A stretch of 63,846 nucleotides of DNA, filler included, from Craspedostauros australis (Eukaryota): NCBI GenBank assembly GCA_030167865.1. It is 13 parts of 13 records of this genome, joined end to end, with 100 filler letters (N's around TTAATTAATTAA, not from the genome) between each part and the next. Parts side by side here need not be neighbours in the genome. Positions count along the whole stretch, not along the records: positions 32,852 to 41,461 come from JALAGF010006484.1; 12 more parts are not named here. The stretch is one strand, 5' to 3'. The notes beneath the pieces were generated by a model. The model worked only from the letters and a program-made list of their open reading frames with translations, did no database searches and was not told where the DNA came from. Made by a program: the position numbers and the translations under genes. This document shows positions 2,112 to 59,456 of this stretch, one piece after another (position 1 is the stretch's first letter; every line of letters begins with the position of its first letter).

Positions 2112-2128
2112 GCGGTAACGTCGATTTT

Positions 2129-5548: not shown

Positions 5549-5555
5549 GTCCGAC

Positions 5556-11199: not shown

Positions 11200-11206
11200 C
11201 TCTTGC

Positions 11207-11699
11207 CAGACTATTGCATCATCAATGGAATGTGGAATCTGGAGGATTGTGGAAGGCAAGAGCTGATGTTGACAGGATGTCATCATGTCACCACGTCAAC
11301 AGCTGTCTCCACATCAGATCAAGAAGGCAGAGATTCGATGACGAAGTGACATCGAGATCGTGGATATACAAGGAGGAATTCGGACAAGACATTGGTGATT
11401 ACTCGCAGAGTAGCAGGCCAATAGAGAACGAGATGATGGAGTATATACCAAATACGGAGTACGTATTGTATATGGAATATCGTGTAGTACCAACATGCAA
11501 CATTGAGAGAGAGAATACGAGCAACAGCGAGAGAGTATCTCGCGTGCCGACTTATAGTCGGACCAACAGCAGATACCAGGAGCATTGGGAGACTCCAAGA
11601 GCATTGGACTAGCAACGCAATGAAATAGCAAACATAACCGTAACAACCACTACCGTCACCTACAGTCGCAAGAATATCTATGAGCGGAACTTGCCAACA
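11207..11699 (+). mobile_element. Copia family A LTR, 3' part of a diverged copy in tandem
   Basis: Repeats 10695-11199 with divergence and ends GCGGAACTTGCCAACA. Confidence 0.8.
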
Positions 11700-12531
11700 T
11701 GCATTACGTGAGCTGTGCGCTGCGCACCGCGAAACGCACAGCCAACACATATTTGAGGACCACAAGGGCGCTGCATGAATCGCAATGGCGTCATAAGGTG
11801 AGAATGATGGTGCACCATGGCAAAGAGGAGCAATGATCCAATGGGTGTGAAGGAAGTAGAGTCGCACAGCAGAGTAGCATCTGGGCAGTAGATGGCGAAC
11901 AATGATGACACTATAGTAGAGTCTACAATAATACTGCATTGCACAATCGCACTCTACTGGAGTCAACGCCGCACACTTCTCTCCCGCAAGATGAAGGAGC
12001 ACTACCGCTTAGCAGACACACACACAAACTACCAGATAGACTAACAAGACAACACAAGATGCTGACATGAAGGTATACCCTACAAGACCGATAGAACTGA
12101 AACCGAAGTCGGGATTGATGTCACTTGATGGGAAGAACCCGGATCTATTTTTCCTGTTGGACGAAAAGAGACATTAATAAGTATGTTGGATTTTACCGCT
12201 GCTCTGTCCGTTGGGCATGGCCGGCGGACACATTTCCGCCTGGTCGGCGTGATGGTTGAATCCTTCCCGGCAAGGCACGGGAATTCCGCTGAAACTGGTG
12301 TCCGGATGTTCGTGATCAGTCCCCGATTCAATCGTGTTTAGGACAATTAATCTNNNNNNNNNNNNNNNNNNNNNNNNNNNNNNNNNNNNNNNNNNNNNNN
12401 NNNGATGTTCGTGATCAGTCCCCGATTCAATCGTGTTTAGGACAATTAATCTTTGGTCGATCTTGTCAATCCCACATCGCTGAATTTGTTGTCACCGTTT
12501 AATTAACGTTATAAGCGTTATTCATCAACGA

Positions 12532-12667
12532 AGTACTTTCAACGTTTGTTAAGTACTTTCAACGTTTGTTGAGTACTTTCAACGTTTGTTGAGTACTTTC
12601 AACGTTTGTTGAGTACTTTCAACGTTTGTTCAGTACTTTCAACGTTTGTTCAGTACTTTCAACGTTT
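12532..12667 (+). repeat. 20-bp tandem array AGTACTTTCAACGTTTGTTN x7 (runs into gap)
   Basis: Directly visible 20-bp period. Confidence 0.95.
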
Positions 12668-13761
12668 NNNNNNNNNNNNNNNNNNNNNNNNNNNNNNNNN
12701 NNNNNNNCCCACCAGGCACTGCAACAACCCCGACTCGCAGAGACCACGCTGTTGCGGAGAGCATCCAAACACGAGTCAATCTGGCCAGAAAAAAAAACAC
12801 AAAAACTCCACAACGAGCGCAATCGGTTTGCGGAGCGAGTGGTGGAAAGTAGAGCAATGGTTGTTGTGCTGCTTCTCGCACTTCCTCCTCGCTGACTTCC
12901 TTCTTCTTGATGTTCCCTGCGTCTTGATTGTATGATGGATGATCAGCGATAGATAATCAGTGATAGATGATCAGTCATGGGCGATCAGTGATTGATGATC
13001 AGTGATGGAGGATGGATGATGACNNNNNNNNNNNNNNNNNNNNNNNNNNNNNNNNNNNNNNNNNNNNNNNNNNNNNNNNNNNNNNNNNNNNNNNNNNNNN
13101 NNNNNNNNNNNNNNNNNNNNNNNNNNNNNNNNNNNNNNNNNNNNNNNAGTTTGCACCGTAATCCCGTTTAAACCGTTTCATACATATTGCTGCTTGGTCC
13201 CCTCGATTCGCTGTGGCTTTGCTGACTGTCGGATTGTCACAATTTCGCTTCTTTTGGTATGTACCTGCTGCATGCCCCATGCATGGGCACCACAGGGCGC
13301 TCATCCCATCCACCATTGCTTGGACCCATGGTCGACCATCCACAGGTACTGTCGTGCAGTCTGTTCGTTAAGAACAAGACTTGTTGTGCTTGGACTTCCA
13401 TCTTGGCCCTGATTGTGGCTTTGTGAGCATGTTGGCGAGGTTCGATTCTGTAGGCTCATACGAGACCACCATCACACCTGTTGCACTGCATTTTTGTACG
13501 AAGTGGTATGCGATGGCTCTTGCTTTCTTTCATAGCTGTGACTCTGGGAGTGAGGTGTTGTTCATGACGCTTTGATTGTCAACTCGCATGTCTGCCNNNN
13601 NNNNNNNNNNNNNNNNNNNNNNNNNNNNNNNNNNNNNNNNNNNNNNTAATCAGTGATAGATGATCAGTCATGGGCGATCAGTGATTGATGATCAGTGATG
13701 GAGGATGGATGATGACAAGTTAGCACACGCTTGAAACGATGTTGAGGGTGACAACATCCAA

Positions 13762-14389: not shown

Positions 14390-14866
14390 TGACATCTGGA
14401 GAGCAGAAGGACGCCTACTGACGTCGACAGGATGTCATCATGTCACCACGTCGACATCTGTCTCCAACTCAGAACAGGAGGCGAAGATCCGATGACCGAA
14501 GGGCATCAGCATCATGGATACAGAAGGTGAACTTCAAATGGCGAGTACTCATGGAGTAGGAGCCAGTACTGAATGAACGGAGTGTCGAATACGGAGTACG
14601 TATCGAACACGGAGTATCGTGTGCGACGAGCACACGATGTTGAAAGAGAGAGAATACAGAGAGGAGCGAGAGAGAGCATCTCGCGTACCGACTCATAGTC
14701 GGAGACTGAATCTACGAAACAGATTGAAGCGCCGAGAGCATCGGGCAAGAGAACGNNNNNNNNNNNNNNNNNNNNNNNNNNNNNNGTAATGAAATAGCAA
14801 ACAGACGACTATCAACCAACACCATCTTCCACGATCGTAGGTTACCGTGAGCGGAACTTGCCAACA
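14390..14866 (+). mobile_element. Copia family A LTR (3' part) inserted in a transposase gene
   Basis: Homologous to 10720-11199 and ends GCGGAACTTGCCAACA directly against the transposase frame. Confidence 0.85.
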
Positions 14867-18090: not shown

Positions 18091-19639
18091 GACAGCTCAC
18101 AGTGGAAATGGCAATCAGTCCACTGATGTGTTGCACATTCCAAGTCACTCATTGGCTCAACACTTCCATGTGCATGCAGTGAAAAGACGATGGCAAGTGT
18201 GCATGTGGTATAGAAGGTGATGCAGGTGATTCACTTCATCATACAATGGATAGCTCACACTTCATGATTTGGTTCAGTTGCGGATAGCAAGATGGGATGA
18301 ATGTACCCATGAGTGGGTGAGGAGCTTGGAATATCAACAGCATTGAACCTCAGTCGCAGCCACTATTGACACTTTCATTGTCATCACATTGTTGGGTCCT
18401 TGCGGTATGCAAGCATTCACCCGATTGTTCGAACCAGCCATGGGGCAGCTGGTGAGCCAACGAGCGAAGAAAGAGCCATACACCTTGCCAATTGTGCTTT
18501 GGTCAAGCTTGATGCAACCAAAGCATACCTTTGCAATACCCTGGAAGATTTCCAACACTTGTGTCCTCATTTCTGCATCTAACAATACTCTGAATGATCA
18601 CTTGATGAAGCTTGTGAATGTTGCGATGACATCTGACTTGACATGTGTGGGTGGTTCTTGATCTGGATTTGGTGCACGATTGGGATCGAGCTGAGCAATA
18701 AGATAGAACAAGAGACAGCGTGCAAGCAGGAGAGCAGCCAAGGGGATGTCATGTGACACCAATTGAAGATTGTCACTGATGTGATCATGTATGTGCTGAT
18801 AGTGAAACTATGCTCACCTGGCTCTACTCTTGCACCATCTTGGATTGCTCCTGTTGGAGTGTGCAAGGCTTGCTTTGGTCCAACCAATTGGTTGGATTTG
18901 CGAATACTCCAGTGTTCAAAGCGATGTGTTTCGTGTGCAATGTATTGGTACCATATGATGCATTGGCATCAAGCCATTGTTTTTCACATCTCAGGACCAA
19001 TTTGCCTCAGGGTGTGTGTGTCTTGAGCAATGCTCCAGCTTGACAACTTGGCCAATGGCATCATTGGATCAAAGATGTGCAGCATTGGCATCAACGTGGA
19101 GACATCGCACACATCTTCAGCATGATGCATGATCTGGCCTCAGCTCTGCCATCTGTAAGCTTCACGTTTCCGCACAAGGCGTGCATTCTCCACCCGAACT
19201 TGTTCAGATGGGGGAATTGAAGCACCAGCGATCGCGCTCATCATCTGGACAGTGTTTGCAGAAGGAAGTGTACCAGGCAGTTGGACGCACACCCTGCTAT
19301 CCAACACAGTTTGGCACAAACAGGGAAGCTTCTGTCGAATGACTCAATGGACTACAGAAAATCGAGTTTGATCGCACACATTCCTTCTTCGTGCTTCTTT
19401 CGTGTTGTTTGTGTGTGTGTGTGTTTGGTGGTGGATGTCGAGACGGATCCGCACCAACCAGAGTGCGATCATGGAACAGAGAAACAGAACGTGCGAACAA
19501 GACAACGACAACCTTGCTATTCCTTGCAACAGTTTGGTCTCATACCATCAGTCAGCATCTTCATCATAAGACCGTGAACACATTGAGCAATCATCCAGCA
19601 ATGCGTTTTCTGCGAAGAGCTCAACAACCAACGACCAAC

Positions 19640-21068
19640 ATGCCGAATGTCTCAGACGGACAACTCCTTGATGCTGCCAACACAGGTGATCTGTTGGTGT
19701 TGAGGGAATGGAAGGAGCAGAATGAAGGATGTGATGTCAACACGGTCAAAGACGAATTTGGCTGGACTCCACTTCATTGGGCATGCTATGGAGGCAGCCT
19801 GGAATGTGTCAAGTACCTCATCGAATCAACCAACGCCGATGTCAACTGCAAAGCCAACGATGGCCACACTCCACTTCACTATGCATGCGTCAACGGCCGC
19901 CTGGAGTGTGTCAAGTACCTCATCGAATCAACCAAGGTCAATATCGACATCCAAAACGACGACAACAAAACACCCGTCGAATTAATCATCGCGAACAATC
20001 AGGTCGAGATGATGAGATCAATCATGAAGCATCTCGGTCATCTCAGTCGTCGCAACTTGCAACTGCAGACGCAGCTGCAAACAGAGATGCAGGTGCGCAA
20101 GCAAAGACACACAAACACCATCACAACACCAACCAAGCACGACAATCCTAAAATCCACACAACAACCAACATCAGCATCGACCAAGATCGTCGCAGCGCT
20201 GTTCGTTCTGAGGCCAAGGCAGACATCACCTTCCTGTGCGGACAAGGCGACGAACAACAGNCAATCAANGCAAACTCCGGAGTCCTCATGGTCACTGTTC
20301 CGTCCATTCAGACATTGATCGACTCGGGAATCCAACATCAGCATGTCGATGACGGCACTGATGACAGCACTGATTCTGCCACTGCCCTCACCCGCAGGCT
20401 CATCCCTCTTCCCAACCATCAACCCAAACATGTCCAACGTGTCCTCGAATNNNNNNNNNNNNNNNNNNNNNNNNNNNNNNNNNNNNNNNNNNNNNNNNNN
20501 CGATCACAGCACTCCGGACAACGATACTGATACCCGCGATGGCGCTCATGACGATGATGATGGCGCTGACCAGCCAACTTCCACTGCCGATAGACAGGAC
20601 GATCTACAACAGCTGATCCTTGTGGCCAACGAGTTCGGCTTCTGGCGACTCAAGCTTGTTCTTGAAGCAGAGTTGGCCCGCACTCATCTCACAGAGGACA
20701 CCATGGTAGATGCGTTGATCTTCGCTGATCAACACAACTGCGTGGTGTTGAAAGATGCAGCAACGAGGATGGCAGCTCGAAACATGCAGACTTTACTTGC
20801 TCGTGAAGATTGCAGCAAGCTGATTCTACATCCCCAACTGATGGGAGGCATTCAGGCCATCTGCAGTGGGAGAGCGGCAAGCAATGAAGTTGATGACGAG
20901 TACAGTGCCATGTCCATGATGGATTTGTACAAGGTCGTGGATGAAAACGAGGGTACAGCACAAGTGGATTCATACATGGATCGTACAACGTTGGTGAACC
21001 TCGTGCGGTCCGTCGCACCTTCCAGGGTGGCTGAGGCCGCTGGCGCTACTGCTGGAGAAGAGGAGTGA
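19640..21068 (+). CDS. Ankyrin repeat - BTB/POZ - BACK-like protein (gap at 20451-20500)
   Basis: GWTPLHWAC..GSLECVKYLI and GHTPLHYAC..GRLECVKYLI ankyrin repeats. ADITFLCG...ANSGVL (BTB start) and LILVANEFGFWRLKLVLEAEL...ALIFADQHNCVVLKDAA (BTB end/BACK). Start chosen by homology to the paralogs. Confidence 0.85.
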
Positions 21069-23847: not shown

Positions 23848-26800
23848 GTGACGACCGCAGCAGGAGTGCCCGGACGTGCACATCCGGAGGTACCACAAGA
23901 GTCCCGTCCGTGTACAACCCACCCAACAATGGAGCACTGCATCCGAAGGGCGAGAGTAACGAATAGCCAAGGCTTTATCATCCTAGACTCAGGGGCGGAC
24001 GGAGACATCGTTCATGCGTTGGGCTGGGAGGTGACCCACACACACCAACAAGAGTTTCGTGCCCGAGGGGCGACGATCAACTCACCAATCGAGACATTCC
24101 AGATGGTCGACGCGGTGGCAGCATACGAGCCCCCATCAGACGGCGTGATCCTCATTAAAGCGAACTACGTGGCTCTCGACAAGCATCCACAGCAGACGGA
24201 ATCACTGTTTAACACACATCATATGCGCGCGTCAGGACTGAACGTCTACGATCGCCTAATCGAACATCAGGGACAGCAGCGGGTCTCATTGGATGAAATC
24301 AGCATACCACTGGAGAACCATGAAGGCAACACGCTCCGAATTCCCATCAGAAAGCCAACAGCCCATGAGATGGCGACAGCACGGCATATCATTATATGCG
24401 ACAGACACCAGCGTCTACGGCGCAATGCGGGTCGGGTCGATTTCACGCGAATCTTCCGACACCTTCCACCACACGTGGTGGAGAAGACAATGGCGGCATC
24501 CACTCAGCTGGCGGATACTCCAATCGAGGCAGAGTCACGGCTTATCCCGCGGCAGTATCGAGCTCAGCGAGCAGGAGTGCTGCAACCCAACAGAATCGAC
24601 GGCAGAGTTGACACGGACACGTTCTTCTCTACCGTCCAGTCCGTCCGGCACTACAAGTGCTTCCAGCTATTCTCGCACAACCAATCGAAATTCATCTGGG
24701 CGAAGCCACTGAGCCGCGAGGCCATGGCGCCAGGGGCGCTCACGGATTTCATCATCCGCGTCGGCGCTCCGGATCTGCTCGTTTCAGACAATTCGCAGGT
24801 GCAGTCGGGCAAGGCATGGAAAGCGGTCACATCCCGCTATCTGATCAAGCACCAATTCACGGTGCCAATGAACCAGAACCAGAATCACGCAGAACGGGCG
24901 ATCGGCGATGTCAAGCGGCATGCATACCAGCTTCTGTGGGCCGCCTCGGCGCCACTCTCTTTCTGGTGCTACGCTGTGCAACACGCGATCGACACATGGA
25001 ACTACACGGCGAAAGCAAGCCTCCAATGGCGTACTCCGATCGAGATTCTTCGCGGCAACACTCCCGACATCTCGATGTTTCGTTTCACGTTCTTCCAACC
25101 CGTATGGTTCTTCGAACCCATGACCAAATTTCCCAACCATCCATTCAAGCCGGGGTACTTCCTTGGCATCGCATGGAATCACGGCGATCCATTCACCTAC
25201 ACCATATGGTCTCCACGGGGCGATGACATCACGAAGGGCACCGCGCTTGTGCGCAACATCGTCAAGCCGCGTGTTGTCGAAGACGCCATTCCTCCACGCA
25301 TCACCGACGCGGAGATCAACCGCATCGCTCGACTCGATATAATCCACACCACCACGCGCGGCGAGTCCGGCGAACGCGCCAGAACCAAGACATTGCCGGC
25401 GGAACTCGCTCGACAGGTCCGCGAGGCCATCGACGCGATTGCTGTGCAGTCAGGGGCGGCGGCGGGTCCACCGGAGCCGGAGACGCAGGAGGTCAGGGGC
25501 GTATCCGAGAATAACACTCCAGCAGGCACGGCTGACCGATGGTTCGGTCAACCAAACATAATTCCCAACGACGGCGACATGCCGGAACATAATGCACACG
25601 GCGTCATCTCAGATGACGACGGCGACGCATCCACGGGTAACATCTCTGAGGAGACCGATGACTCCGAAGTCACGGCGATGCCAGATCCTCCGGAGCACCG
25701 CNNNNNNNNNNNNNNNNNNNNNNNNNNNNNNNNNNNNNNNNNNNNNNNNNNCCATCGACGCGATTGCTGTGCAGTCAGGGGCGGCGGCGGGTCCACCGGA
25801 GCCGGAGACGCAGGAGGTCAGGGGCGTATCCGAGAATAACACTCCAGCAGGCACGGCTGACCGATGGTTCGGTCAACCAAACATAATTCCCAACGACGGC
25901 GACATGCCGGAACATAATGCACACGGCGTCATCTCNNNNNNNNNNNNNNNNNNNNNNNNNNNNNNNNNNNNNNNNNNNNNNNNNNNNNNNNNNNNNNNNN
26001 NNNNNNNNNNNNNNNNNNNNNNNNNNNNNNNNNNNNNNNNNNNNNNNNNNNNNGAGAGAGAGCATGACGAGCTGTTCCGAAATCAGGTCGAAAACGAGAA
26101 ATCTGACGACTTGGCAATCAACTCCATCCTCAGCCACGCATTCAGAGACGGACATCTACACTTCAACGTGAAATGGTCCAACACTGAAACGCAGTGGTTC
26201 CGATACGACGTGATTCGAGCAGACCATCCCGAAATGGTAGCACGATACATCATCAACAATGAACCACGACGCAATGGTCGACACAATCGACAATCGCAAG
26301 TCCTACTCAAGTGGGCAAAACACGCTCTGCGAGCCATCAGGCGCAGAATCCGCAGAATCGAGCAGACTCGAGCCTTCACAACGGATGAGAACGACAATAT
26401 CATCATCATCAGACGAATCCGTCCAGGCAAGAAGAAGCCAAAACGAGACTACTTCGCCACTGTATACCAATACGGTGTCGAGGTCCCACGCAACATGAAG
26501 CATGCATTGCAACTGGATGAGGCCAACGGGGATCACCAATGGAGAGACGCAGCGAAGAAAGAGATCGACGCATTGATCGAACTCGACTGCTTCACATTCC
26601 ACCCATCGACATACCAACCACCAGCAGACTATCAGAGCACGAAACTCCGACTCATATTCGCGGTCAAGCAAGATCTGCGACGTAAGGGGCGCTTGGTAGC
26701 AGGCGGGCATCTCATCGAGCTGGCGGACAACATCCGAGTCTACTCTTCAACCGTCAAGTCGACAAGCGTCCGCATCCTTGATGCAATAGCAGATGCAAAC

Positions 26801-27753
26801 AACCTGCAACAGCTATGTGGCGATGTCGGCAACGCATTCGTCAATGCGTACACCAATGAGAAGATCTACGCGACAGCAGGAAAGGCATTCGACAACAAAG
26901 AAGGACAAGTCATTGTGCTCAAGAAAGCACTGTACGGTCTTCGGTCGAGCGCTCAACGATTCCATGCACACTTCGCTAACACTCTCTCATCAATGGGATT
27001 CACGCCATCCCGGCATGATCAAGATGTATGAATCCAGCGCAGAGACGACTCTGGCTACGACTACATCTGCACCCACGTGGACGACTTCAAGATAGTCGCC
27101 AAAGACCCAGATCAGTACATGAAAGCGATCCAACAAGTCTACACAGTCAAAGACATCGGACCGCCGAAGTACTATCTTGGCAATGATTACTCCAGGAACG
27201 CAAAAGGAAAATGGAGCGTCGGATGCGACAAATACATTTCCAATGCTCTGGACAAGATCGAACAGCTCCATGGGGAACTGCATGACCAACATGTGCCCAT
27301 GAAGAGCAAGGATCATCCGGAAACGGATGACACACCACTACTGACACCTGACGAGCAACAACAGTTCCAGCAGCTCATTGGCATGCTGAACTGGGTTGTA
27401 CAGCTCGGACGTTTCGACGTCGCATTTGCNNNNTCTTCTCTCTCACGTTTCACATCAACACCACGAAAAGGGCATCTCACGAGAGCACTTAAGATATGGG
27501 GATACCTCAAGAGCAAATCCACGCTAAGAACCATGATTGACTCAAAACCCATCGCATTCGAGAACTTCAATCCAGAATCGCCCAACCCGGAAATGGTTGC
27601 ACAGATGAAGGAAGAGTACCCTGAAGCGGCTGAGGACATTGACGATCAGGCACCGGCAGCGATATATCCTGAGATCCAGATGTGCGCATTTGTCGATGCG
27701 GACCATGCTCACGATCTGGTCACGCGGAGATCGAACACCGGCATCATCATCTT
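23848..27753 (+). mobile_element. Pol of CoDi-type Ty1/copia (protease-integrase-chromo-like-RT-RNase H), 3'-truncated, one premature stop
   Basis: IILDSGAD (protease); VDTDTFF / LVSDNS / QNHAERAIG (integrase); KGRLVAGGH, GDVGNAFV, LKKALYGL, THVDDF (RT); FVDADHAHDLVTRRS (RNase H). Copia domain order. TGA at 27029-27031 replaces the conserved W. Confidence 0.95.
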
Positions 27754-27853: not shown

Positions 27854-28097
27854 GCGCGACGAGCACACGATGTTGAGAGAGAGAGAATACAGAAAGGAGC
27901 GAGAGAGCATCTCGCGTACCGACTCATAGTCGGAGACCAAATCTACGAAACAGATTGAAGCGCCGAGAGCATCGGGCGAGAGAACGGGCGTACACCGAGA
28001 GCATCGGAGTAGCCAACTAATGAAATAGCAAACAGAAGACTATCAACCAACACCATCTTCCACGATTGTAGGTTACCATGCGCGGAACTTGCCAACA
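27854..28097 (+). mobile_element. Copia family A 5' LTR (3' part)
   Basis: Ends GCGGAACTTGCCAACA and is followed by leader and gag coding sequence. Confidence 0.85.
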
Positions 28098-28221: not shown

Positions 28222-29664
28222 CCGACTATCAAGCAAGAAGAAGGTGCGAGTGAGACTCCACCACGAGAAGAGAAGGAAGCAGCCGCGGCTACTGTCCTAT
28301 CAGGCGAAGACGCAAGCGCGATCGACGAGACCGAAGAGGAACGGTCTGCAAGGCAACATCGGGAGAAGGAGAGGATCCTCAAGGCGATCAAGCAAGAGGA
28401 GATGTTGGCAAGTTCCGCTCACGGTAACCTACAATCGTGGAAGATGGTGTTGGTTGATAGTCGTCTGTTTGCTATTTCATTAGTTGGCTACTCCGATGCT
28501 CTCGGTGTACGCCGTTCTCTCGCCCGATGCTCTCGTTGCTTCAATCTGTTTCGTAGATTCAGTCTCTGACTATGAGTCGGTACGCGAGATGCTCTCTCGC
28601 TCCTTTCTGTATTCTCTCTCTCTCAACATCGTGTGCTCGTCGCGCACGATANNNNNNNNNNNNNNNNNNNNNNNNNNNNNNNNNNNNNNNNNNNNNNNNN
28701 NGGCGCAGACGCAAGCGCGATCGACGAGACCGAAGAAGAACGGTCTGCAAGGCTACACCGCGAGAAGGAGAGGATCCTCAAGGCGATCAAGCAAGAGGAG
28801 ACTGGTGTGGCGGAGAGCATTCGCACAACCAAACGAAGTGGTAAAAGTGAGACACCACCAGGAGGAGAATTTGTGAGCAAATCAACCCTCGCGCAACAAC
28901 AGGCGAAAATCGAAGAATCGACAACACAGAAACAGACGGAAATCAAGGGCGCGAGCGCACCAACAACGAAACAACGAATCAACATGGCNNNNNNNNNNNN
29001 NNNNNNNNNNNNNNNNNNNNNNNNNNNNNNNNNNNNNNNNNNNNNNGAAGACTACAGCGCATGGGAGTCCCAAGCGAAGGCATACGCTCGTGCACAGAAG
29101 ACAAGAGACGTGATGTTGGGCAAGACCAAGGTGCCAACAGTGAGTGAGATCGCGGCAGCCGCCGGTGAAGCCAAGGAAGCAATGGAAGAGATCTACGAGC
29201 TGGGATGCGACTGCTTCAGCGATCTGATCCTCATGATGGATGCAGAGAAAGGAAAAGGCAAGCANNNNNNNNNNNNNNNNNNNNNNNNNNNNNNNNNNNN
29301 NNNNNNNNNNNNNNNNNNNNNNNNNNNNNNNNNNNNNNNNGCGGAGAAGTTCCGACCATCCGATGCGGTGACGAAGATCAAACTCAAGCGCCAATTCAAC
29401 AACGAAAAGATGAAGAGAGACACGGACCCCGAAATCTACATCACGCAACTTGAGAGTCTACGATCACGTCTCCACGATGTCAAGTACGAGATCACGGACG
29501 ACGAAATGATCATGCAGATCCTCAGCACGGTGAGCAACGAGTACAGAACTCACATCGTGAACTTCCAACACCAACTCACATTCAATCCGGAACTGGTTAC
29601 CATCAACACGATCAGAGGAGTACTCCGCACTGCATACGCCACTCACAGAGGAGGCAAGGCATAC
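28222..29664 (+). mobile_element. Gag (UBN2/Retrotran_gag_2-like) of Copia family A, fragmented by gaps
   Basis: EDYSAWESQAKAYA, CFSDLIL, KFRPSD...KLKRQF...DPEIYITQLESLRSRL...ITDDEMIMQIL..VSNEY. Confidence 0.85.
28403..28651 (-). mobile_element. Copia family A LTR end inserted in reverse orientation into family A gag
   Basis: TGTTGGCAAGTTCCGC begins directly after the ...KAIKQEE codons and is the reverse complement of 27854-28097. Confidence 0.85.
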
Positions 29665-31548
29665 NNNNNNNNNNNNNNNNNNNNNNNNNNNNNNNNNNNN
29701 NNNNNNNNTTAATTAATTAANNNNNNNNNNNNNNNNNNNNNNNNNNNNNNNNNNNNNNNNNNNNCTTTGTTTTTCTGGCTTGCACAACTTCTTTTTGGAT
29801 GTGGGGTTTGGAGAGTTGGCCTGTGGAGCTTCTTCATCTTCATTTTGTTGAGATGGATGCCCTTGACCTCCATGAATACCGTCCTTGCTGCAATTCATGC
29901 AGCTGTCACATGTGTGGATAGGATCTGTCCAATTTCCACATCGAAGAGGAGAAGATGTTGGATGTTGCCAACAGTCGCACCATGATTTGCAACATCAGCA
30001 GGTTGGATTCTGTGGTTAGTTTGTTGTCGTCCGCGTTGCTGAACAGCTGCTTCCACTGTTCGAAGGATACTCCGTCCGCCAGATCGTCCCTCATCTCCTT
30101 TACAAAGTCAATGGGCTTGTCAAATGTGTCCTCTTCCCCAGATGCAACTTGGAAAGGTTCCAAGCCCCATGTCATCAGGTTCCTCTTGCGGAGGTTGCCA
30201 CCCCAACTTCTCTTGTGCTGATGACTCCAAGTCCAATGGTTCTTGTTTTCAGTGGGTTGTTTTTTGGCGTCTTTTTGCCTGGAGAGTTGCTTGCCACCTC
30301 GGCCTCCTTGTCCTGGACATCCTTGTGCCATGGTCGGCGTCGATCAAGCGCTCTGGTTGACTTTGCCAGAGCCGTTTTGTGCGCCTGTGCGCACCATTGT
30401 CAAAGATTTTGTTCTAGTACTGATTCTACAGGTTCTACGTGAGAATTTTCATACTGGTCCTACGTACGTCATCAACTGTGGAAGAGCCANNNNNNNNNNN
30501 NNNNNNNNNNNNNNNNNNNNNNNNNNNNNNNNNNNNNNNNNNNNNNNNNTGGACAGGGGATGCCGAGGTCATCTGCTGAGCTGTTGGCATGGTGCGGAAA
30601 GAGACTGGTGGCAGTGGTGTTGTTTTCCATGTTGTTTTTGTGTTGTGATTCGTGTGCTTCCAGATTCATTGACACCAAAATAACAAGCCGAGAGGAGAGT
30701 AGATGAACAACAGCCAGCAGCCAGAGATGGCTGTTGGCGACGACGAGCAGAGAGGAGGTCCAAAGGAACAAACAGAGAATAGATCTGAAATGAGGATGAG
30801 GCCGCAATAAGAGTAGGCATATGGAGGGAAGGCAGTGTGTGCTGATTGGGACATGGACAAAGCTCAACGTCACGGAACATAAACGGTAGCAGAACCGAGA
30901 ACAAGGCAGTGTGAAAGTCAAGCTGGGGGTCAAGATCTGGATTACCCACTGACCCACAACTCTGAATTTTGACAACTGATCCATGGCCCAGATGAATCAG
31001 CATCCTTGGCATGCCTACTGCTGCCACGCAATCCTCAACATTTCTTCAAAACCAACCGCCTCACCAACGCGAAATGTGATTGTGTCGATGATAGGCACGA
31101 CTGGATAAGAAAATCGAAGCACGACTGGAGTTTCCAACCCCAATTGCACGTCTACGTCCGCATGCCCAACGTGTTTAGAAATAGACTAATGCGAAAAAGA
31201 TAAACTTTTTAACTACAAGGATCAGGAGCTTGTTACTTCACACATATACTATCTACAACATTTTAGGATGAACGAAGTCCTCAAACTAAAAATCGGCACG
31301 AGAATACCTTTGTATCCTGAATGGGGTCATGCACAGACAAACAAAGCAGCAAAAACACAAACCAGCCACTGTCAAGCAGAGTAGTCGTATGCACGAGCTT
31401 TGATACACACGGATAACGACAACTGGATCCATCTCTTCCTTGCACCCTGCATCCCCTGAATGCTTCTGTTCTCATAATTCGGCACAACAAAGCAACACAG
31501 ACACAGACACGCATTCGCACCAATTCACATCAACACGCACCAGCAACC

Positions 31549-32751: not shown

Positions 32752-33504
32752 NNNNNNNNNNNNNNNNNNNNNNNNNNNNNNNNNNNNNNNNNNNNTTAAT
32801 TAATTAANNNNNNNNNNNNNNNNNNNNNNNNNNNNNNNNNNNNNNNNNNNNCTGGCATGCTTCTTATTCCATTCAACGATGTCAATTGTTGGAAGAAGTG
32901 CGGATGTAGCAATGAGAAGGAGGCCATTGATGCTCATTGATATCCAGTATACTCTACGATAAGAAGTTCAGGTGATTTTATGGTGGACGAACATNNNNNN
33001 NNNNNNNNNNNNNNNNNNNNNNNNNNNNNNNNNNNNNNNNNCCTAAGTACGATGTACACTTTTGTGCTAATCAAACTCGAGACTGCATTTTCAGAAGTCT
33101 ACCCTTGTGTCTACTTTGGGTAGACATTGGTCGTCTGTCGTGCATACGTAAGGTTCTTGAGCACACCACAGAGTTCTGTGTGATTTCCAACTATTGTGCG
33201 TCCTCCAAGGAGGAGACAAACACAGACAAACAGAAGGAGGAGACCATGCGAACAAGACAACAAGACAACAACACACACACACCACTCAACCCCATACTCA
33301 ACCGCGTGAACAACAGACATCGAATTGCCACTCATATTCATCACACAGTGTATGGTACTCATACTCATACTAATACAAGCTGTTGCAGACACAAACATCG
33401 ATATCTCTTCCATAGGCAGCTCCGACCACAGACATCCTCGACAGCCAATCCAACATAAATCGTCCAACGTCTATCGTCCAGCAACCATCCACCACACTCT
33501 CAAA

Positions 33505-35048
33505 ATGCCGAGTGTTACCAACCAACAACTCATTGATGCTGCCAAGGCCGGTGACTTGTCAGTGTTGAAGGAGTGGAAGAAGCAGAACAAGACGCAGAAT
33601 GAAGGAAATGGTGTCGACAATGTCACAGACTGGCTTGGTTGGACTCCCCTTCATGATGCATGCTGGAACGGCCACCTGGAGTGTGCGAAGTACCTCATCG
33701 AATCATGTGAGGCGAACATCAACTGCAAAGACAACTATGGTAACACTCCCCTTCATCTCGCATGCCACAAAGGCCAGCTGGAGTGTGTGAAGTACCTCAT
33801 CGCATCATGTGGAGCCGACGTCAACTGCCAAAACAACCAAGATGAAACTCCCCTTCATGTTGTATGCCGCAACGGCAAGTTGGAGTGTGTGAAGTACCTC
33901 ATCGAATCATGTGAGGCGAACATCAACTGCACCGCCAACAGTGGTTGGACTCCCCTTCATTATGCATGCTCCAACGACCACCTGGAGTGTATCGAGTCCC
34001 TCATGAGAGGACTTTCGCCTTCAGTTCACCCACAACTGCAACAACTGCAGCAACGCTTACAACAAAACGAGCAAGAGAATAAGCAGCCACAAGAACAGTT
34101 GGGACAGCAATTGACACAGAAGGAACAAGAGAATGAGCAACTGCAACAACAGCTGAGACACCAGTTGAAGCGAAAGAAGCAAGAGAATGAGCACAAACAC
34201 AGTACCCACAAGAGGACCAACGTCAGCATTGGAGAAGACAGCTCAGATCCTTCCAAACCGACAACAGGACAGACACCATCTTCTTGTGTGGACAAGGCGA
34301 CGAACAACAACGAATCAAAGCAAACTCTGAACTTCTCATGATCACCGTCCCATCCATTGAGACACTGATCGACAAAGGAATCCAACATCAATGCGCGCAT
34401 GATGGCACTCACGATGGAACTGAATCCATGCAAGTAACCATTCCTCTTCCCAATCTTCAACCAAGGCATGTCCGATAAATCCTCCAATGCATCTACACAG
34501 GCAAGATATTCTTCAATGACAGCGCTCGTGACAACTCTGCTGCTCACGTCAGTGCTCATGTTGGTGCTCACGCCGACACCCAACATGATACCGATGCCTC
34601 TTACCAGCCAACTCCCATCCTCACTGGACAAGATGATCTGCAACAGCTGATCCTTGTGGCCGACGAGTTCGGTTTCTGGCGACTCAAGCTTGTTCTTGAA
34701 GCAGAGTTGGCCCGCAAGCATCTCACAGAAGACACCATGATAGATGTGTTGATATTCGCCCATCAACGCAACTGCGTGGTGTTGAAGGATGCAGCAATGA
34801 GAATGGCAGCTGAAAGTGAGAAGGATACGTTCACTCATCTAGATTTAAGCAAACTGATTCTACAACCTCAACTGATGGTAGGCATTCATATCCTCCGCAG
34901 TGGGGGAGCGGAGAGTGATGGTATTGATGATGAGTACAGTCGTATGTCCATGATGGAGCTGCACAAGGTCATAAATGAGGAGAAGGGTACAGCACAAGTG
35001 GATTCATACATGGATCGGGCAACATTGGTGGACTTTGTCCGTCCCTGA
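33505..35048 (+). pseudogene. Ankyrin (4 repeats) - Gln-rich coil - BTB - BACK paralog with one frameshift and one in-frame TAA
   Basis: Highly similar to 19640-21068. The frame changes before LCGQGDEQQ (about 34270), and there is a TAA at 34476-34478. The ankyrin part alone (33505-34341) is an open ORF. Confidence 0.85.
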
Positions 35049-35249
35049 GTACCAAATCATCCAAAATGATTGAGCCAGATGGTGCTTCTGAAGAAGAGAA
35101 GTGCCAGACCATATCATGCCGTACCACACCACAACAGAAGTCTTTGAGAAGTGAACGCACGACGGATTGAGTTGATGGATAAAATAGTGGTCAGAATAGT
35201 CATTACCACAATATCTGTGTGAAAGGAGCCAGAGCAATAAGTGATCCAA

Positions 35250-36445
35250 TCATTAAATGGTGCGTCCGCCATGACTTGACCGTCGCCTTTGGTGATGTGC
35301 ACAGCATGCTGCTCTGCATGCTGCTCCATGCACTGCCGTATCGTTTGGAGCGCGGTCTGGCTAATCCGCGAGATACGCATGATCTTCTGTGCATGAATTG
35401 CAGATGATCCCGGTTGGTGTTCGGCACGTTGCCGTGCATCATCATTGGCCAATGCGACATGAAGAGGATGGAGCAGCCACCGCTGTCATCGTCGTGGTCG
35501 TCATTGCCGATCAAATGGTTTCCGCGTTCGTTGGCTTCGTTGGTGTGGAAGGAGTTGTGGGGGAAACGATGGCAGACCCCACAGGCGTCATGCATGGCTT
35601 GTTGGACTCGAATCCAACTTGATGAAGTGGAGCGTCCTGCGACTGTCAGTGTGTTGGTGGTGCTGCAGTTCGTGCATGATGTCGCGTAAGGCATACACGT
35701 ATGCCAGCAGCTGTATGGTTTTTGTATGGCCGACAAAGATGACGAGCAATGGGAGAAGTCGCCGATGTCATTGCACACGATATCTCTCATCTGTGGATGT
35801 GACGAGACAGTGCCTCTGTCTCATCGTTTGCGGTTTGTGGCTGCGACGCACCGCTTTGAGCATCGGTATGAACAGGCGTGCCTGGTTGTGGTGCGTGTTG
35901 TGGAAACTGAGGAGCATCTCCGAACACCAGGCTCTGCAGGTCTTGGAAGAAGTCGCTGCGTTTGATCTCACGGATGCACCCGTCCAACATGTGCTGCATC
36001 TCCGTTTCCGACAACGCATCGGACGTTCATGTGCATGCACGCTGCTCCTGATGACTTGAATCCAGACCGCACCACGGGCCATGACATGTCTTGCCATTGC
36101 TGTTGGTTATGTTGTTGATTCTGTTGTTGGCGCTGCCATTGCCCATGTCCCAAGCTCTCCTCTACTCAGGAGCAGTCGGTTTGATATCTTCGTTTCTGAT
36201 GTTGCTGAGCGATGTGGCACGTTGGAGATCGCTGTTCGTCACCGCTTGTCATTCATCATCTGTATCAGCGTCATCATCGGCATCGTCATCGTCTCTTGCC
36301 CATGGTCGCCTTCGTTGGTTCTGGTTGGCGTGCCATAGTTGCGCAGCCGCTGCTTGCTTGAGTACTTCATTGCTTCGCTGCTTTGTTGCTTGAGGTTCAA
36401 TGCGTCAGTGTTGGCTGATACCTCCACCAATGCAAACATAGTCAT
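35250..36445 (-). pseudogene. Decayed convergent hypothetical gene paired with ankyrin-BTB
   Basis: ATG at 36445 (MTMFALVEV...). Broken frames include MQHMLDGCIREIKRSDFFQDLQSLVFG and a Cys cluster CRIGQ**CTATC...IICNSC. Homologous to 21180-22124. Confidence 0.45.
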
Positions 36446-36695
36446 GCCATTTCATCACCCTCTCTTCCCTTCTCTCTTGTTGTGTTGATGTTGTTTGATG
36501 GATCACGACGCAAAATGGAAGATCCGTTGTTTTGGGTGGTGTCAAGAATTGTTGGCGCGTTTGTTGAGTACTCGTCTGTCTGTCATCCGTAGTTCATTCA
36601 ACCAATGACGCACACAAACACTCACAACCAACATCATCTCGCTGTTGTCTTCTGTCAGAACAGGTATTTGTATCTAGACAGTAGCAGTTTCGACT

Positions 36696-36739
36696 AAGGT
36701 GGCCTGGTAGGCAGAGCGGTTCGATTCCGCAGCACCTTA
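36696..36739 (+). ncRNA. tRNA-like RNA module in TRIM LTR1 (acceptor stem, D-like hairpin, T-arm; no anticodon arm)
   Basis: AAGGTG/CACCTT stem, GCC-TGGTA-GGC hairpin (A-box-like TGGCCTGGTAGG) and GCGG-TTCGATT-CCGC T-arm with B box GGTTCGATTCC. A36739 falls at canonical position 73. Confidence 0.75.
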
Positions 36740-36962
36740 TGTCGTAACATGGTAAGGTCGCGGGTTCGAGTCCTCGAAAACATCATGCCTTGTTGGCGAC
36801 TGGGACGAAATGCCGTCTCCCTACAGCGGGAGGATAAACATAGAGTGTGAGCGGTCTGACTACGTAGCCGGAAGGGCTGGTAGGGGCTGAAGGGCTAGTC
36901 TAGTTACCAATAGGAAGGGTGTCAGAACAGGTATTTGTATCTAGACAGTAGCAGTTTCGACT

Positions 36963-37006
36963 AAGGTGGCCTGGTAGGCAGAGCGGTTCGATTCCGCAGC
37001 ACCTTA
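36963..37006 (+). ncRNA. tRNA-like RNA module in TRIM LTR2
   Basis: Identical copy of 36696-36739. Confidence 0.75.
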
Positions 37007-37359
37007 TGTCGTAACAGTCTTCATTCGACGCAACTCTGTTCGACGATGGCGATGGCGATGGTGCTGGCGATGGCAACCCCTCCAACGATGCCGCATCCCT
37101 TCACATTGGTACCACCACCAACAACACAAACAGTCAGACAAGCCATCAGACAAGATGATGAGTCATCGACATCCAAGAGGAACTGTGGGAAGGCTCGCCA
37201 GTTGCTCCGCACCTTGACCCACCCGTCGTACGACTATGAGTATTACTATGGAACCTTCCATGAGCACGATCTACTCTGGGAGTTGTCACAGCAAAGCGTC
37301 CAGCCTGATAGGTACTCTGTTCAAACCTTTGTGCGGTCATGAGGTCATGACGATCGAAG

Positions 37360-39486
37360 TTGCTTGAAGAGGACGGTGTCAGACGGATAGCGGAGAAACA
37401 AACGGAGACCAAGCAACCGCAACCGCAGCAGGCCGACACGAAATCGAAGGCGAGCAAGCCCACCAGCGTTGCCAAAGAGGCCAAAGCAGCTGCAAAATCA
37501 GGTGGTCGTGCCAGTGTCAGCACAGATACACCAAGCAGCGCCAATAGAAGTGCAGCAAAAGATGCGAAAGCTTTGGCTGTGAAACGATCACATGCGAAGA
37601 GTCTGGAGATGCTCGACATGCAAGATCACGAGATGTCATTCAGCTCCCTTGACCCCAACAAGTTCATCAACAACGAATCGATGCCGGTGCCAATCACCCC
37701 AGGTGGACTCAGCTTCGCCACAGCCCCAGCACTTGGCGCAACCCGCGAATGGAGCAGTCAAGACAAGATGATGCTTGCGCAGAGTCGGAGACGCAGGCCA
37801 AGGACACAAAAGAATTCCAACGCAACGACCAGCGGCGACAAATCGAGGAGCAAGAGTTTGGAATTCTTGGAATTCTTGAAGGACGGACGCAACATGCCAG
37901 TCACACCAGACACATCAGGCACATTGAGCGCAGCCAGCACCCCGGCTCTACCTCGAGTTGCGACAACGGAGACGTCACGCAGTGAGAGCCTGGAGTCACT
38001 CTCCAATCTGCCAAGTCTCCACGACGACGACGACGACAGCGCCGGCGTTGCGACAAGTGCTGCTCCAACGAACGGTGGGAGAAGCTCCGCGGCCCCTGTC
38101 ACGCCTGGAGGTTGGAGCACGGCATCTACACCAGCCCCCTTCAACCGCACACATGAAGAAAGACAACAGTCTTCGTTGTTGAACAGGCGCAGGTTGACAT
38201 TGGGAAGTATCCTCAAGGCCAAACGATCATCATTACGTGAAGTGTCATCGACCAATCCTCCCAAATCGAAGCAACGACCATCTCTCGAATCCCGACCATC
38301 GCAATTGGCCGATCTTGCCTTGACCAAAGCATCCGCAAAGGCGCCATCATCATCGTCGTCGCCACCGTCGCCATCATCACAGTCCAAATCCAAACTCAAT
38401 CTTCAACAGTTCGAACACAAACACGAACACGGAGGTGTCTCGGCCACAACCCCAAGCCCCATCCAGTCCTGGAGCCTTGAGTTTGGGAATCGAATGGCAA
38501 TCGAGCAAGAAGGACCGGGTGATTCCTTCTCGCAACAGATCCGCGCGCAGTTCGTTGCGCCCAAGTGAAGACTCGAAGCAACGACGTTCATGCGGACGAA
38601 GCACGGATGCTCTGTGCGATGAGATGAAGGCAAGGATCTCCAAGGTGCTTGGCCATGGGCCCCGACATCACCACTCCAGCAAAACATGAGGTGTGTCATC
38701 ACCATTGATATTACCATCGAGATCACCGTCGCCACGGCATCGGCAGAGAAGCGCACAGCACACCATTGGCAAGCTGCACTCGACATCGTCAAGATCAAAG
38801 AGTGTGGAGCATTCGACATCATTGCGCCATCATCGTGACGGAGCAATTCACATTTGCTCCTCTGGAAGAAGCCGCTGCTCGTCATCGGCGCAGAGTCATC
38901 GAAGTCCGTCCGATCGCGATCACAGAAGACTGCGCAACTATCGATGGACTCATCGCCATCATCACGGCGACAACGAGCATCTGGCAGTTCGGACGATGTG
39001 AACGCAGCCTCACGTTCACGCCAATCCAACTCAAATGCGCACTCCACTGGTACTGGTTTGCACCAACGCAAGGGCTCACCTTCACGAAATCATGTCCGAG
39101 GAAGTTCGCGAACACCAAATCAACGTGACCGTAGCCAATCGACACCACGTGGCGAAGATCAGCGAAGGAAGTCCTCTGATGAACGATCACCATCGGCGCG
39201 ACAACGAAGCAGATCAAGAGGATATCGAAATTACAGCGTCGAACAGCACAGCGATGAGCGAGATGAAGATGGACGGCATGGCAAGGAGCGACATGCCAAC
39301 AACAACATGGCGACAAACGTTCGTCATCACGCGGGGCCCTTCNATCGAATCNTCGTGGACGAAACAGATCGTCGACTCGCGATGCTGTCTACCATGAGAA
39401 GNTNTCTGNNACAAAGCCACTGCAACTCACACCAAAGAAAGCGGTCAGGAGCAAGAGCGCGTCTCAGTACCGCGATCGCTCGATGA
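37360..39486 (+). CDS. Ser/Thr/Arg-rich disordered hypothetical protein, probably frameshifted after 38568
   Basis: 402-codon ORF with recurring SKSLE and P[VI]TP(GG)..[SA]T[AP]PA motifs. Similar composition continues in other frames (38693..39001, 38854..39486). No recognisable domain. Confidence 0.45.
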
Positions 39487-46763: not shown

Positions 46764-47829
46764 NNNNNNNNNNNNNNNNNNNNNNNNNNNNNNNNNNNNN
46801 NNNNNNNTTAATTAATTAANNNNNNNNNNNNNNNNNNNNNNNNNNNNNNNNNNNNNNNNNNNNCGTTGGAGGGGACGCAGGGGTTGGACCGTAGAGAATG
46901 GTTGGGTAGTTGGCGAGGGGTGGGGATGGTACAAAGCGTGCCACTGGAGCGATCATCCTAGATTGGTCATGAGACACCGATGGTACAAAGGGGAGAGCAT
47001 AAGGGTTGAGCCCCTGGCGAGGAGAGTGGACATCGCGACCTTTGAGAGGACGGTGAACCTTTGGTGAAGGCTGGTGGGCGTTGGCGGGAGAGTTTGGGCG
47101 TGGGTGGCTCATGATCTGAAGGTGGTGGCAGGGCAAACAAAGGAGGGTGATGGGTGGCTTGATATAGACAATCGAAGATACTGTTGGAATCGGTGCTTGC
47201 TGGGTGTTTCTGGACATGTGACGAGGAACAGGACAGCCCCAAGAACCGCAGCCTGAGAGATCGCAACAGACATGACAAAGAGAAGGAGGACGACAACGAT
47301 GGTGGAAAGCCCACAGCACACCTGAGATGCCAGTACATGTATGCACACATGTCTGCATTTTCCAAAGTGATGTGCCTGTGGGTGTCATCAAAATGAGCAG
47401 CTGTCCCAGACAAACCGAGTGTCAAACATACCATCTGCAACACGTCGTATGCGACATTTTTTCGATACTGGGACCAGCGGAGCAGAATATTGACAAATGG
47501 AGCTTCAACTATGTTGAATGCACAGGCAGCTGTCTCCTTCGACGATATCGATCGCACAATCATTGATGGGTCTGCCCCAGGAGAAGCATACCATCAGAGT
47601 TGTGAACAGTTGAAGCAAACAATTTGGAGTGATTTTGGCAGTCTATGTTATTCTNNNNNNNNNNNNNNNNNNNNNCTCTCTTCTTGTCTTGTTTACCAGT
47701 CTATTGTATACATATCTATAAGCATCAAGAATCAAGTTGGTTTGATGGTTCAAGGTTGATCTACTACAAACCTTGATACTGTTGCTGCTGTTACTGGTAC
47801 CGTTACTGTCGCTGCTGTTGCTTTGCTGC

Positions 47830-48620
47830 CATCGCTTCGCCGGCATCGTTATTGCCGCCATTGCTTCACCGCTTTTGCGTTCACAGCCATTGCTTCGCTG
47901 CCGTTGCTATCGCAGCCATTGCTTCACCGCCATTGCTCCATCGCCATTGCTTCGCCGCCATTGCTTCGCCGCCATTGCTTCACTGCCATTGCTTTGCCGC
48001 CATTGCTTCGCCGCTATTGCGTTCCCCGCCATTGCTTCGCCGCCATTGCGTTCACCGCCATTGCTTTGCCGCCATTGCTTCACCGCCATCGCTCCATCGC
48101 CATTGCTTCGCCGCCATTGCTTCGCCGCTATTGCGTTCACTGCCATTGCTTTTGCCACGGTTGCTTTCGCCGCCATTGCTTCACCGCCATCGCTCCATCG
48201 CCATTGCTTCGCCGCCATCGCTCCATCGCCATTACTTTGCCGCCATTGCTTCGCCGCTATTGCGTTTCCCGCCATTGCTTCGCCGCCATTGCGTTCACTG
48301 CCATCGCTCCATCGCCATTGCTTCGCCGCCATTGCTTCACCGCCATCGCTCCATCGCCATTGCTTCGCCGCCATTGCGTTCATCGCCATTACTTTGCCGC
48401 CATTGCTTCGCCGCTATTGCGTTCACTGCCATCGCTCCATCGCCATTGCTTCGCCGCCATTGCTTCACCGCCATCGCTCCATCGCCATTGCTTCGCCGCC
48501 ATTGCTTCACCGCCATCGCTCCATCACCATTGCTTCGCCGCCATTGCTTCGCCGCTATTGCGTTCACTGCCATTGCTTTTGCCACGGTTGCTTTCGCCGC
48601 CACTGTCGCTGCTTTCGCTG
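47830..48620 (+). repeat. Complex minisatellite built from 12-15 bp units (CGCCGCCATTGCTTC / GCCATCGCTCCATC / GCTATTGCGTTCACT)
   Basis: About 800 bp of reiterated GCCATTGCTT-cored units with higher-order blocks. Confidence 0.95.
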
Positions 48621-48884: not shown

Positions 48885-49448
48885 TGTTGGCAAGTTCCGG
48901 ACCTCGGAAGCCTACGATCGTGGATAGTCATTCTGTTTGATATTTCATTACTTGAGCACTCCGATCCTCTTGATGTCTCTGTTCTCTTGCCCGATGCTCT
49001 TGGCGTATCTGTCTGTTTCGTAGATTGGGTCTCCGACTACGAGTCAGTGCACAAGATGCTCTCTCGCTGCTATTCGTATTCTCTCTCTCTCTCTCTCTCA
49101 ATGTTGTGTGTTCATGCTACACGATACTCTGTGTTCAAAGTGTACTCCGCATTCGACACTTTGTTCATTCACTACTGGCTTGCCACTCCATGAGTGCTTG
49201 CCACTTGAACTCCTCCTCGTGTATCCACAATCTTGATGCCCTTNNGTCATCGAATCTTCANTTTCTGCTTCTGACATGGAGACAGATGTCGACGTGGTGA
49301 CATGATGACATCCTGTCGACTTCAGCTGTCGTCTTCCTGTTCCTCCAGATGTCACGTTCCATCGATGATGTCGATGGCTTGATGAGGATGTTGTCATTTG
49401 AGGTTTTGTTGGGAAGTACATCGAGGCTCGCTCGATACCATACGTCTC
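48885..49448 (-). mobile_element. Copia family A LTR (cut by gap)
   Basis: Starts TGTTGGCAAGTTCC on + and is the reverse complement of 10625-11199. Confidence 0.85.
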
Positions 49449-58847: not shown

Positions 58848-59456
58848 TGTTGGCAAGTTCCGTTCACGGATGCTCTTGCGACTGTTGACGATGGTGGTGG
58901 TGGTGGTGGTGGTTACGATTCTGTTTGCTATTTCAGTATGTTGCTCCGATGCCTCTCGGAGTCTCCCAATGCTCTTGGTGTCTCCCAACTATGAGTTGGC
59001 ACGCGAGATGCTCTCTTGCTGTTTCTTGTATTCTCTCTCTCTCTCTTGCATGTTGGTACTACGCAATATTCCGTACTCGATATGTACTCCGTATTCGATA
59101 CGTAGTCAGTCCGCTCATCCTCCACTGGCCCACTACTCTGCGTGTAGTTGCCAATATCTTGTCCAAACTCCTCCTTGCATATCCATGATCTCTATTGGCA
59201 AGTTCTGCTCATGGGTATTCTTGTGATTGCATACAACGGTGTTGGTGGTGGTGGTGGTTACAATTCTGCTTGCTATTTCATTGCGTTGCTATTCCAATTC
59301 TGTCTCGGAGTCTCCCGACTATGAGTNGGCACGCGAGATGCTCTCTCGCTGTTACTCATATTCTCTCTCTTTCTTGCGTGTTCGTACTACGCAATATTCC
59401 GTGCTAGATACGTGCTCCGTTGTCAGGATGCACATACACATATTCGCATCCTGACA
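58848..59456 (-). mobile_element. Two stacked Copia family A LTRs: short 3' LTR 59193-59456 and partial older LTR 58848-59192
   Basis: On minus, PPT CAGGAAGGG is followed by TGTCAGGATG...ACTTGCCAATA, then a mid-LTR fragment ending GGAACTTGCCAACA. Confidence 0.8.

Follow-up and report, generated by a model that had tools for sequence, protein, structure and literature searches.

A miniature LTR retrotransposon, probably of the Helenus type, with a tRNA-like LTR module complementary to its own primer-binding site

Results

A non-coding miniature LTR retrotransposon in a draft scaffold

The window (the whole 63.8-kb stretch of DNA that was analysed) encodes ankyrin proteins, a family-3 GPCR and a glycosyltransferase-61 protein, the last of which resembles clusters with Oomycota as the commonest phylum. 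The host was accordingly taken to be a eukaryote, probably an oomycete or a relative of one. It also holds an ORF with a piggyBac-type transposase domain, gap-broken fragments of a Copia-type reverse transcriptase (RT) and gag, at which no primer-binding site (PBS) could be read, and a family of LTR-like repeats that occurs in both orientations and partly as tandem units of ~513 bp (Table 1). This repeat family was considered as a sharer of the PBS described below and was rejected, as it is tandem, gap-ridden and has no readable PBS. Two ankyrin-repeat genes (19391-20530 and 33325-34341) are part of a segmental duplication (19.7-22.0 kb and 33.6-36.0 kb), whose copies are ~14.03 kb apart and share 61-83% identity. 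It ends at 36026, ~630 bp before the element reported here; a paralogous empty site was sought through this duplication and discarded, because the duplication stops short of the element. Arrays with 14-bp and 20-bp periods are present at 47781-48579 and at 2109-2328, 5536-5931 and 12512-12671, and the array at 47781-48579 lies inside long ORFs without Pfam matches.

The element is 364 bp in total and is bounded by two LTRs of 97 bp each (36653-36749 and 36920-37016), which are 100% identical, have a spacing of 267, open with TG and close with CA. The target duplication is 6 bp long, within the range of 4-6 bp, and the bases just beyond the two GTCTTC copies differ. The PBS, with TGG at 36750, directly follows the 5' LTR, the purine run AGGAAGGG directly precedes the 3' LTR, and no ORF of at least 60 aa was found inside the 170-bp interior (36750-36919). 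The identical LTRs argue for a recent insertion. Overall, these data indicate that the element is a real, recently inserted, non-autonomous and non-coding miniature LTR retrotransposon (TRIM). The initial annotation had already recognized a TRIM here; identical LTRs, TG..CA ends, 6-bp target duplication, PBS, purine tract and absence of coding capacity all support this claim, with the target duplication and the purine run being additions to the anatomy given there. As a side observation, the end of the interior (36894-36912) repeats, in inverted orientation, a sequence close to the LTR start (36932-36952, and also 36665-36685). The local alignment between 36894-36912 and 36932-36952 was reached by 18 of 1000 shuffles, and a hairpin of these two stretches could enclose the polypurine tract and the first LTR bases.

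The draft scaffold has N runs throughout, with linkers TTAATTAATTAA between N runs, and the remaining 100%-identical short-spaced repeats of the window adjoin such runs (for example, 13148-13596/13841-14289 and 25427-25610/25752-25935). These N-adjoining duplicates are assembly artefacts of the draft scaffold. In contrast, the element is located inside a gap-free stretch (33042-39342), and it is therefore no assembly artefact of this type. A 297-nt contig of one sequencing run (X1) equals 36720-37016 without any difference and spans the junction between the interior and the 3' LTR; this is weak independent support, since X1 is the only public run holding the locus and may be the source of the assembly itself. 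The depth of this contig in X1 was 66.1, compared with 21.5 for a flank contig (36987-37198), which hints at two to three element copies only if the run, whose kind is uncertain, consists of DNA.

No other copy of the element was found within the 63.8-kb window. A metagenome scan with a two-B-box pattern gave at least 119 loci, and none of the 119 listed was related to the element beyond T-arm matches of 14-29 nt (blastn). Viral contigs contained no match for the LTR end or for the PBS string, and no match was found in prokaryote genome contigs either.

Table 1 Features of the element and of its surroundings in the window
Feature	Position	Strand	Basis or remark
Target-site duplication, left copy	36647-36652	+	GTCTTC, identical to 37017-37022
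5' LTR, 97 bp, TG...CA	36653-36749	+	100% identical to 36920-37016
Hairpin at LTR start, putative U3 (36920-36947 in the 3' LTR)	36653-36680	+	Predicted folds
Y-shaped LTR domain, acceptor stem extended by leader and trailer	36687-36748	+	Fold in the context of the 3' LTR
tRNA-like module: acceptor stem, D-like hairpin and T arm, without anticodon arm	36696-36739	+	Fold
A-box-like motif (TGGCC, then TGG)	36700-36711	+	Sequence read; Helenus signatures TRGCY and YGG, compressed
Imperfect 23-bp junction hairpin, LTR T arm and acceptor 3' strand against PBS region	36714-36775	+	Fold
B box GGTTCGATTCC in the 5' LTR (second copy 36985-36995)	36718-36728	+	Pattern search
Non-coding interior, 170 bp	36750-36919	+	ORF search
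PBS, TGG right after the LTR	36750-36764	+	First 9 nt complementary to module 68-73 plus CCA
Second B box GGTTCGAGTCC, sense, interior	36763-36773	+	Pattern search
Polypurine tract AGGAAGGG, adjoining the 3' LTR	36912-36919	+	Sequence before the 3' LTR
3' LTR, module at 36963-37006	36920-37016	+	Repeat comparison
Target-site duplication, right copy	37017-37022	+	GTCTTC
Copia-type reverse transcriptase (RVT_2) and gag (Retrotran_gag_2) fragments, gap-broken	25592-27031, 28633-29712	+	
ORF with piggyBac-type transposase domain	61576-63516	-	DDE_Tnp_1_7, E 2.4e-06
LTR-like repeat family, TGTTGG...-type ends	10691-11338, 14390-14866, 27860-28097, 28404-28650 (-)		
Same LTR-like family, further copies	49021-49092, 58973-59044, 59303-59374		

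A reduced tRNA-like module with a perfect B box in each LTR

A tRNA-derived module that includes a perfect B box is present in both LTRs. When folded, the module (44 nt) has an acceptor stem of 6 bp, a D-like hairpin of 4 bp and a T stem of 4 bp that closes a 7-nt loop; folding and motif search thus reproduced what the initial annotation had described for each LTR, including the missing anticodon arm. When counted from the T loop, 36727-36738 correspond to tRNA positions 61-72 and A36739 to position 73, the discriminator, which also agrees with the earlier assignment. However, the fold energy (-16.1 kcal/mol) is unexceptional by itself (z -1.64, with 10 of 200 shuffles folding equally well), and the helices are imperfect, with a G.G mismatch in the acceptor helix and an A.A mismatch in the T helix. 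The B box is a stronger signal, because all three matches in the 63.8-kb window to the pattern GGTTCGANTCC, based on the B-box consensus, fall within the element (0.15 expected; none of 100 shuffles reached three).

The 5' half of the module is out of tRNA register, as the box-A signatures overlap the acceptor stem. These signatures (TRGCY and YGG, at 36700-36707), together with GGTTC of box B at 36718, are those of the Helenus elements discussed below. The A-box-like motif starts just 18 nt before the LTR B box, whereas the distance between the starts of the two boxes in a standard tRNA gene is 44 nt. ARAGORN found no tRNA in the whole window, and Rfam gave no tRNA match in it even at E<=10. 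Hence, judged by ARAGORN, Rfam and the fold, the module has no complete cloverleaf and does not qualify as a functional tRNA gene.

In the context of the whole LTR, leader and trailer sequences prolong the acceptor stem to a helix of ~14 bp (36687-36689/36746-36748, 36691-36694/36741-36744 and 36695-36701/36733-36739), for which z is -2.42 and 2 of 200 shuffles fold equally well. The supposed discriminator A36739 is paired with T36695 in this extended helix, and processing of the module end would thus be expected to be hindered. No TTTT that could act as a Pol III terminator was found on the + strand in the element or up to 39000 (36653-39000, ~2 kb downstream), which is odd for a supposed Pol III unit.

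The interior carries its own T-arm-like sequence, which includes a perfect B box in sense orientation. This B box starts 63 nt after the A-box-like motif does, giving the tRNA-gene-like spacing that is missing for the LTR B box. Reading the PBS region beyond 15 nt as an imprint left in antisense by a canonical tRNA was also considered, and was rejected because the T loop would be 2 nt off register and would lack G53/T54. Given the perfect sense B box and the mismatched antisense T loop, the interior T arm is best taken as a sense tRNA-derived piece and not as a copy of a primer. The possibility that the LTR and interior sequences are sense paralogues was dropped as well, since 189 of 1000 shuffles reached the score of their local alignment.

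The module 3' end is complementary to the PBS

The element has TGGTAAGGT at 36750-36758, and its PBS sequence reads TGGTAAGGTCGCGGG. With CCA added, the module 3' end (...ACCTTA-CCA) pairs with nine contiguous bases of the PBS in tRNA register, as the initial annotation had stated. Six of these nine bases are templated (about five of them informative) and three come from CCA, and the perfect pairing ends there. For comparison, 188 ARAGORN-predicted tRNAs from the 119 unrelated metagenome loci listed were reduced to 186 distinct 3' ends, to which CCA was added. These ends are bacterial and were found via the B-box pattern, and they therefore serve as a control for T arm plus CCA and not for the host repertoire. 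Of these 186 ends, 131 matched the PBS over 3 contiguous complementary nt, 44 over 4 nt and 11 over 5 nt, the longest match seen, and none had more than two templated matching bases. The duplex of the module with 36750-36780, which comprises ~25 bp when bulges are allowed, reached -33.1 kcal/mol, compared with a mean of -22.0 kcal/mol (sd 4.1, best -31.1) for the bacterial controls, none of which (0/186) attained the value of the module.

It may be asked whether this complementarity is a coincidence or a product of decay in a dead, single-copy relic, or whether the repeat itself is an assembly artefact. The single copy in the window, the lack of any copy in the metagenome (119 loci listed), viral and prokaryote sets, the many artefactual identical repeats of the draft and the very large number of windows covered by the first-stage screen all speak for such an explanation. 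Against it, the artefactual repeats all adjoin N runs and those of the element do not; the 6-bp target duplication, TG..CA ends, TGG and purine tract are all correctly placed; and the identical LTRs argue for a young insertion. Moreover, a match of 5-6 nt in a fixed register is expected by chance in about 1 in 1000-4000 cases, and the controls (n=186) show at most two templated bases. We therefore regard chance or artefact as quite improbable.

The complementarity extends beyond the nine bases when both strands are read in one RNA. The strands 36714-36740 and 36752-36775 form an imperfect hairpin of 23 bp (19 Watson-Crick and 4 G-U pairs, with three bulged bases), which places the junction between LTR and interior inside its 11-nt loop. 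This junction hairpin (-25.7 kcal/mol) is the minimum-free-energy structure of 36690-36800 and is statistically the strongest structure of the locus, with z -3.56 (1 of 200 shuffles folding equally well) against z -1.64 for the tRNA-like fold. Some of this pairing is to be expected of any T arm, since T-arm sequences are close to palindromes.

The module fold and the junction hairpin compete, as seen from base-pair probabilities across windows of different extent. When the PBS region follows the LTR (5' context), the mean base-pair probability of the acceptor stem was 0.00-0.66 in all five windows; the junction hairpin took 0.32-0.92 in the four of these without the 3' LTR and 0.00 in the window of the whole element. 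When no PBS region follows (3' context), the acceptor stem reached at least 0.97 in four of six windows, with 0.58 and 0.04 in the others.

Possible routes of self-priming

One explanation of these findings is that the element makes its own primer, with the module being freed by RNase P and RNase Z, gaining CCA and priming in trans at its own PBS region. A precedent for such processing is MALAT1/mascRNA, in which a tRNA-like fold in a longer transcript is recognized by the CCA-adding enzyme as well as by RNase P and RNase Z. The element likewise has a tRNA-like fold within a longer sequence, with processing of its module being hypothetical; mascRNA is a full cloverleaf, and to our knowledge it has no role in priming. 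Control of PBSs by tRNA fragments is known as well. Self-priming in trans would fit the nine contiguous pairs in exact tRNA register, the bulged duplex of ~25 bp (-33.1 kcal/mol), which surpasses those of 186/186 control ends, and the reduction of the module to acceptor stem and T arm only. It would also fit the base-pair probability of the acceptor stem, which is 0.00-0.66 in five of five 5'-context windows and at least 0.97 in four of six 3'-context windows, although this preference fails in the other two. On the other hand, the perfect pairing is just 9 nt, 3 of which come from CCA; the acceptor and T helices contain the G.G and A.A mismatches; the acceptor stem continues into the 14-bp leader-trailer helix, in which A36739 is paired; ARAGORN and Rfam do not recognize the module as a tRNA; and the T arm of the PBS region is sense and not antisense. 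Taken together, these points make priming in trans by the module unlikely.

A possible refinement is that the tRNA-like fold forms only in the 3' LTR, with the 5' copy being held in the PBS hairpin, so that the template is spared. In its full form, this would mean that the module of the 3' LTR is excised and CCA-tailed, while the 5' copy is locked in the 23-bp hairpin. The cuts of RNase P and RNase Z in the 3' LTR would then at the same time fix the 3' terminus of the genomic RNA, and the released CCA-tailed RNA of ~47 nt would invade the hairpin and prime the minus strand. We hold this context-decided route, too, to be unlikely.

Another route is self-priming in cis, as in Tf1, where the genomic transcript supplies the primer from its own 5' end (its first bases), which RNase H cuts off. 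Here, U5 would pair with the PBS region in one RNA, and a cut in or beside the loop would leave an extendable 3' end. As in Tf1, any self-made primer would come from the element's own RNA and pair with the PBS; however, Tf1 priming involves no tRNA-like fold, RNase P/Z or CCA addition. The junction hairpin, being the strongest structural signal and having the LTR end and TGG in its loop, speaks for this route. Nevertheless, the paired strand is located 10 nt upstream of the LTR end and does not, as in Tf1, consist of the first transcript bases. Extension would thus copy ~10-13 nt and then run off the template, leaving almost no terminal redundancy for strand transfer. For these reasons, priming in cis appears very improbable.

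Discussion

TRIMs with tRNA-derived sequence in their LTRs are already known as Helenus, and the statement in the initial annotation that tRNA-like TRIMs exist is borne out by Kojima 2024 (PMC10886601), where the name "TRIMp3" is proposed for TRIMs with Pol III promoters. According to that paper, Helenus elements occur in fungi, animals and one lycophyte (Selaginella), have sizes of 311-1263 bp and target duplications of 5 or 4 bp, have their tRNA-like part toward the 3' side of the LTR, and show the signatures TRGCY and YGG (box A) and GGTTC (box B). Their PBSs are assigned to host tRNAs and are held in common with autonomous Copia or Gypsy elements. The element described here is very probably a Helenus-type TRIM. 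Compared with the published Helenus families, it nevertheless differs in several respects: its module lacks an anticodon arm and is not recognized as a tRNA, its A and B boxes are compressed to 18 nt from start to start, its interior holds an additional B box, no T-rich terminator lies behind the module, the target duplication is 6 bp and not 4 or 5 bp, and the host lineage is outside Table 1 of Kojima 2024. What is new relative to the known class is the complementarity extended to a 23-bp hairpin, the interior sense B box and the acceptor stem prolonged by leader and trailer.

The complementarity between PBS and module deserves particular attention. In Kojima 2024 (PMC10886601, Results 3.6), the use of the LTR tRNA-like sequence as a primer is raised and dismissed, with no PBS complementarity having been found. 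The self-primer idea, of which the initial annotation knew no earlier description, had thus been voiced and set aside before; the complementarity itself, which that paper reports for none of its Helenus families, is unusual for the class, and the fact that the match is not routine also lends some support to self-priming in trans. Six motifs of the element (9-15 nt; two from the PBS and four from the LTR module) had no match in one supplementary sequence file of Kojima 2024; among ten strings sought in this file, generic T-arm strings and one 7-mer were matched. Full-text literature searches with the PBS string, its complement and their RNA forms returned only unrelated primers, those on oomycete TRIMs, PBSs or SINEs gave nothing pertinent, and no report of an LTR-encoded tRNA-like primer was found in the literature searched.

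Other elements share parts of this design. Cassandra and Ajax, as described in Kojima 2024, are TRIMs whose LTRs likewise contain a module from a small-RNA gene, with its Pol III promoter; however, their LTRs are 5S rRNA-derived, whereas the module reported here is tRNA-like. Retrozymes are TRIM-like elements with an RNA-processing module in the LTRs, for which the present module is a candidate counterpart, but theirs are hammerhead ribozymes that give circular RNAs. Rfam found neither 5S rRNA nor a ribozyme in the window.

Among the readings considered, we favour that of a Helenus-type TRIM primed by a host tRNA, in which the match to the module reflects a U5-PBS inverted repeat or shared tRNA ancestry, and we consider it probable, if by no means assured. 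According to this explanation, the RT and integrase of an autonomous LTR element would copy the TRIM, and a host tRNA that anneals at TGGTAAGGT... would prime reverse transcription with its CCA end. The tRNA-derived module would be the remnant of an internal Pol III promoter and/or a structured U5, and the interior sense B box, at its tRNA-gene-like distance, may supply the missing part of a promoter that is active at the 5' LTR alone. The complementarity of the module 3' strand to the PBS would then be a cis inverted repeat (a U5-PBS hairpin) and not the signature of a self-made primer; it may have arisen because module and primer derive from the same tRNA species, or because the hairpin was selected. 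The Copia-type RT and gag fragments in the same window, which are possible sources of RT in trans, were counted in favour of this reading, as was the statistical lead of the junction hairpin over the tRNA-like fold. A host tRNA primer is further favoured by the end of perfect pairing at 9 nt, by the sense orientation of the T arm in the PBS region, and by the poor tRNA mimicry of the module, with its G.G and A.A mismatches and over-long stem. In addition, the published Helenus families all fit host tRNAs.

Several observations nonetheless stand against a host tRNA as the primer. None of the 186 bacterial control ends pairs with the PBS region as well as the module does, and the module keeps exactly the parts that are read by tRNA-end-processing enzymes. 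A tRNA ending in ...ACCTTA-CCA would have an acceptor stem opening with two A-U pairs, which is unlike an ordinary elongator tRNA and presumably unusual for a cytoplasmic one. The departures from the Helenus elements published in Kojima 2024 (no T-run, a 6-bp target duplication and no anticodon arm) and the single copy seen within the sets searched also weigh against the reading.

Nearly all LTR retroelements rely on a host tRNA primer. On the ordinary reading, which we prefer, the element would extend Helenus-type TRIMs to a lineage beyond the fungi, animals and one lycophyte named in Kojima 2024, would represent a minimal version of the tRNA-derived module, and would offer a concrete case for the published question of whether an LTR tRNA-like sequence ever primes. 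Helenus-like elements are also of practical concern, as they inflate or confuse tRNA gene predictions. If self-priming by the module were true, an element with its own primer gene would be free of the dependence on host tRNAs, and tRNA-processing enzymes would have been recruited for retrotransposition. It would then be the first retroelement found to encode a tRNA-mimic primer, and a positive case of the possibility that Kojima 2024 sought in Helenus without finding it.
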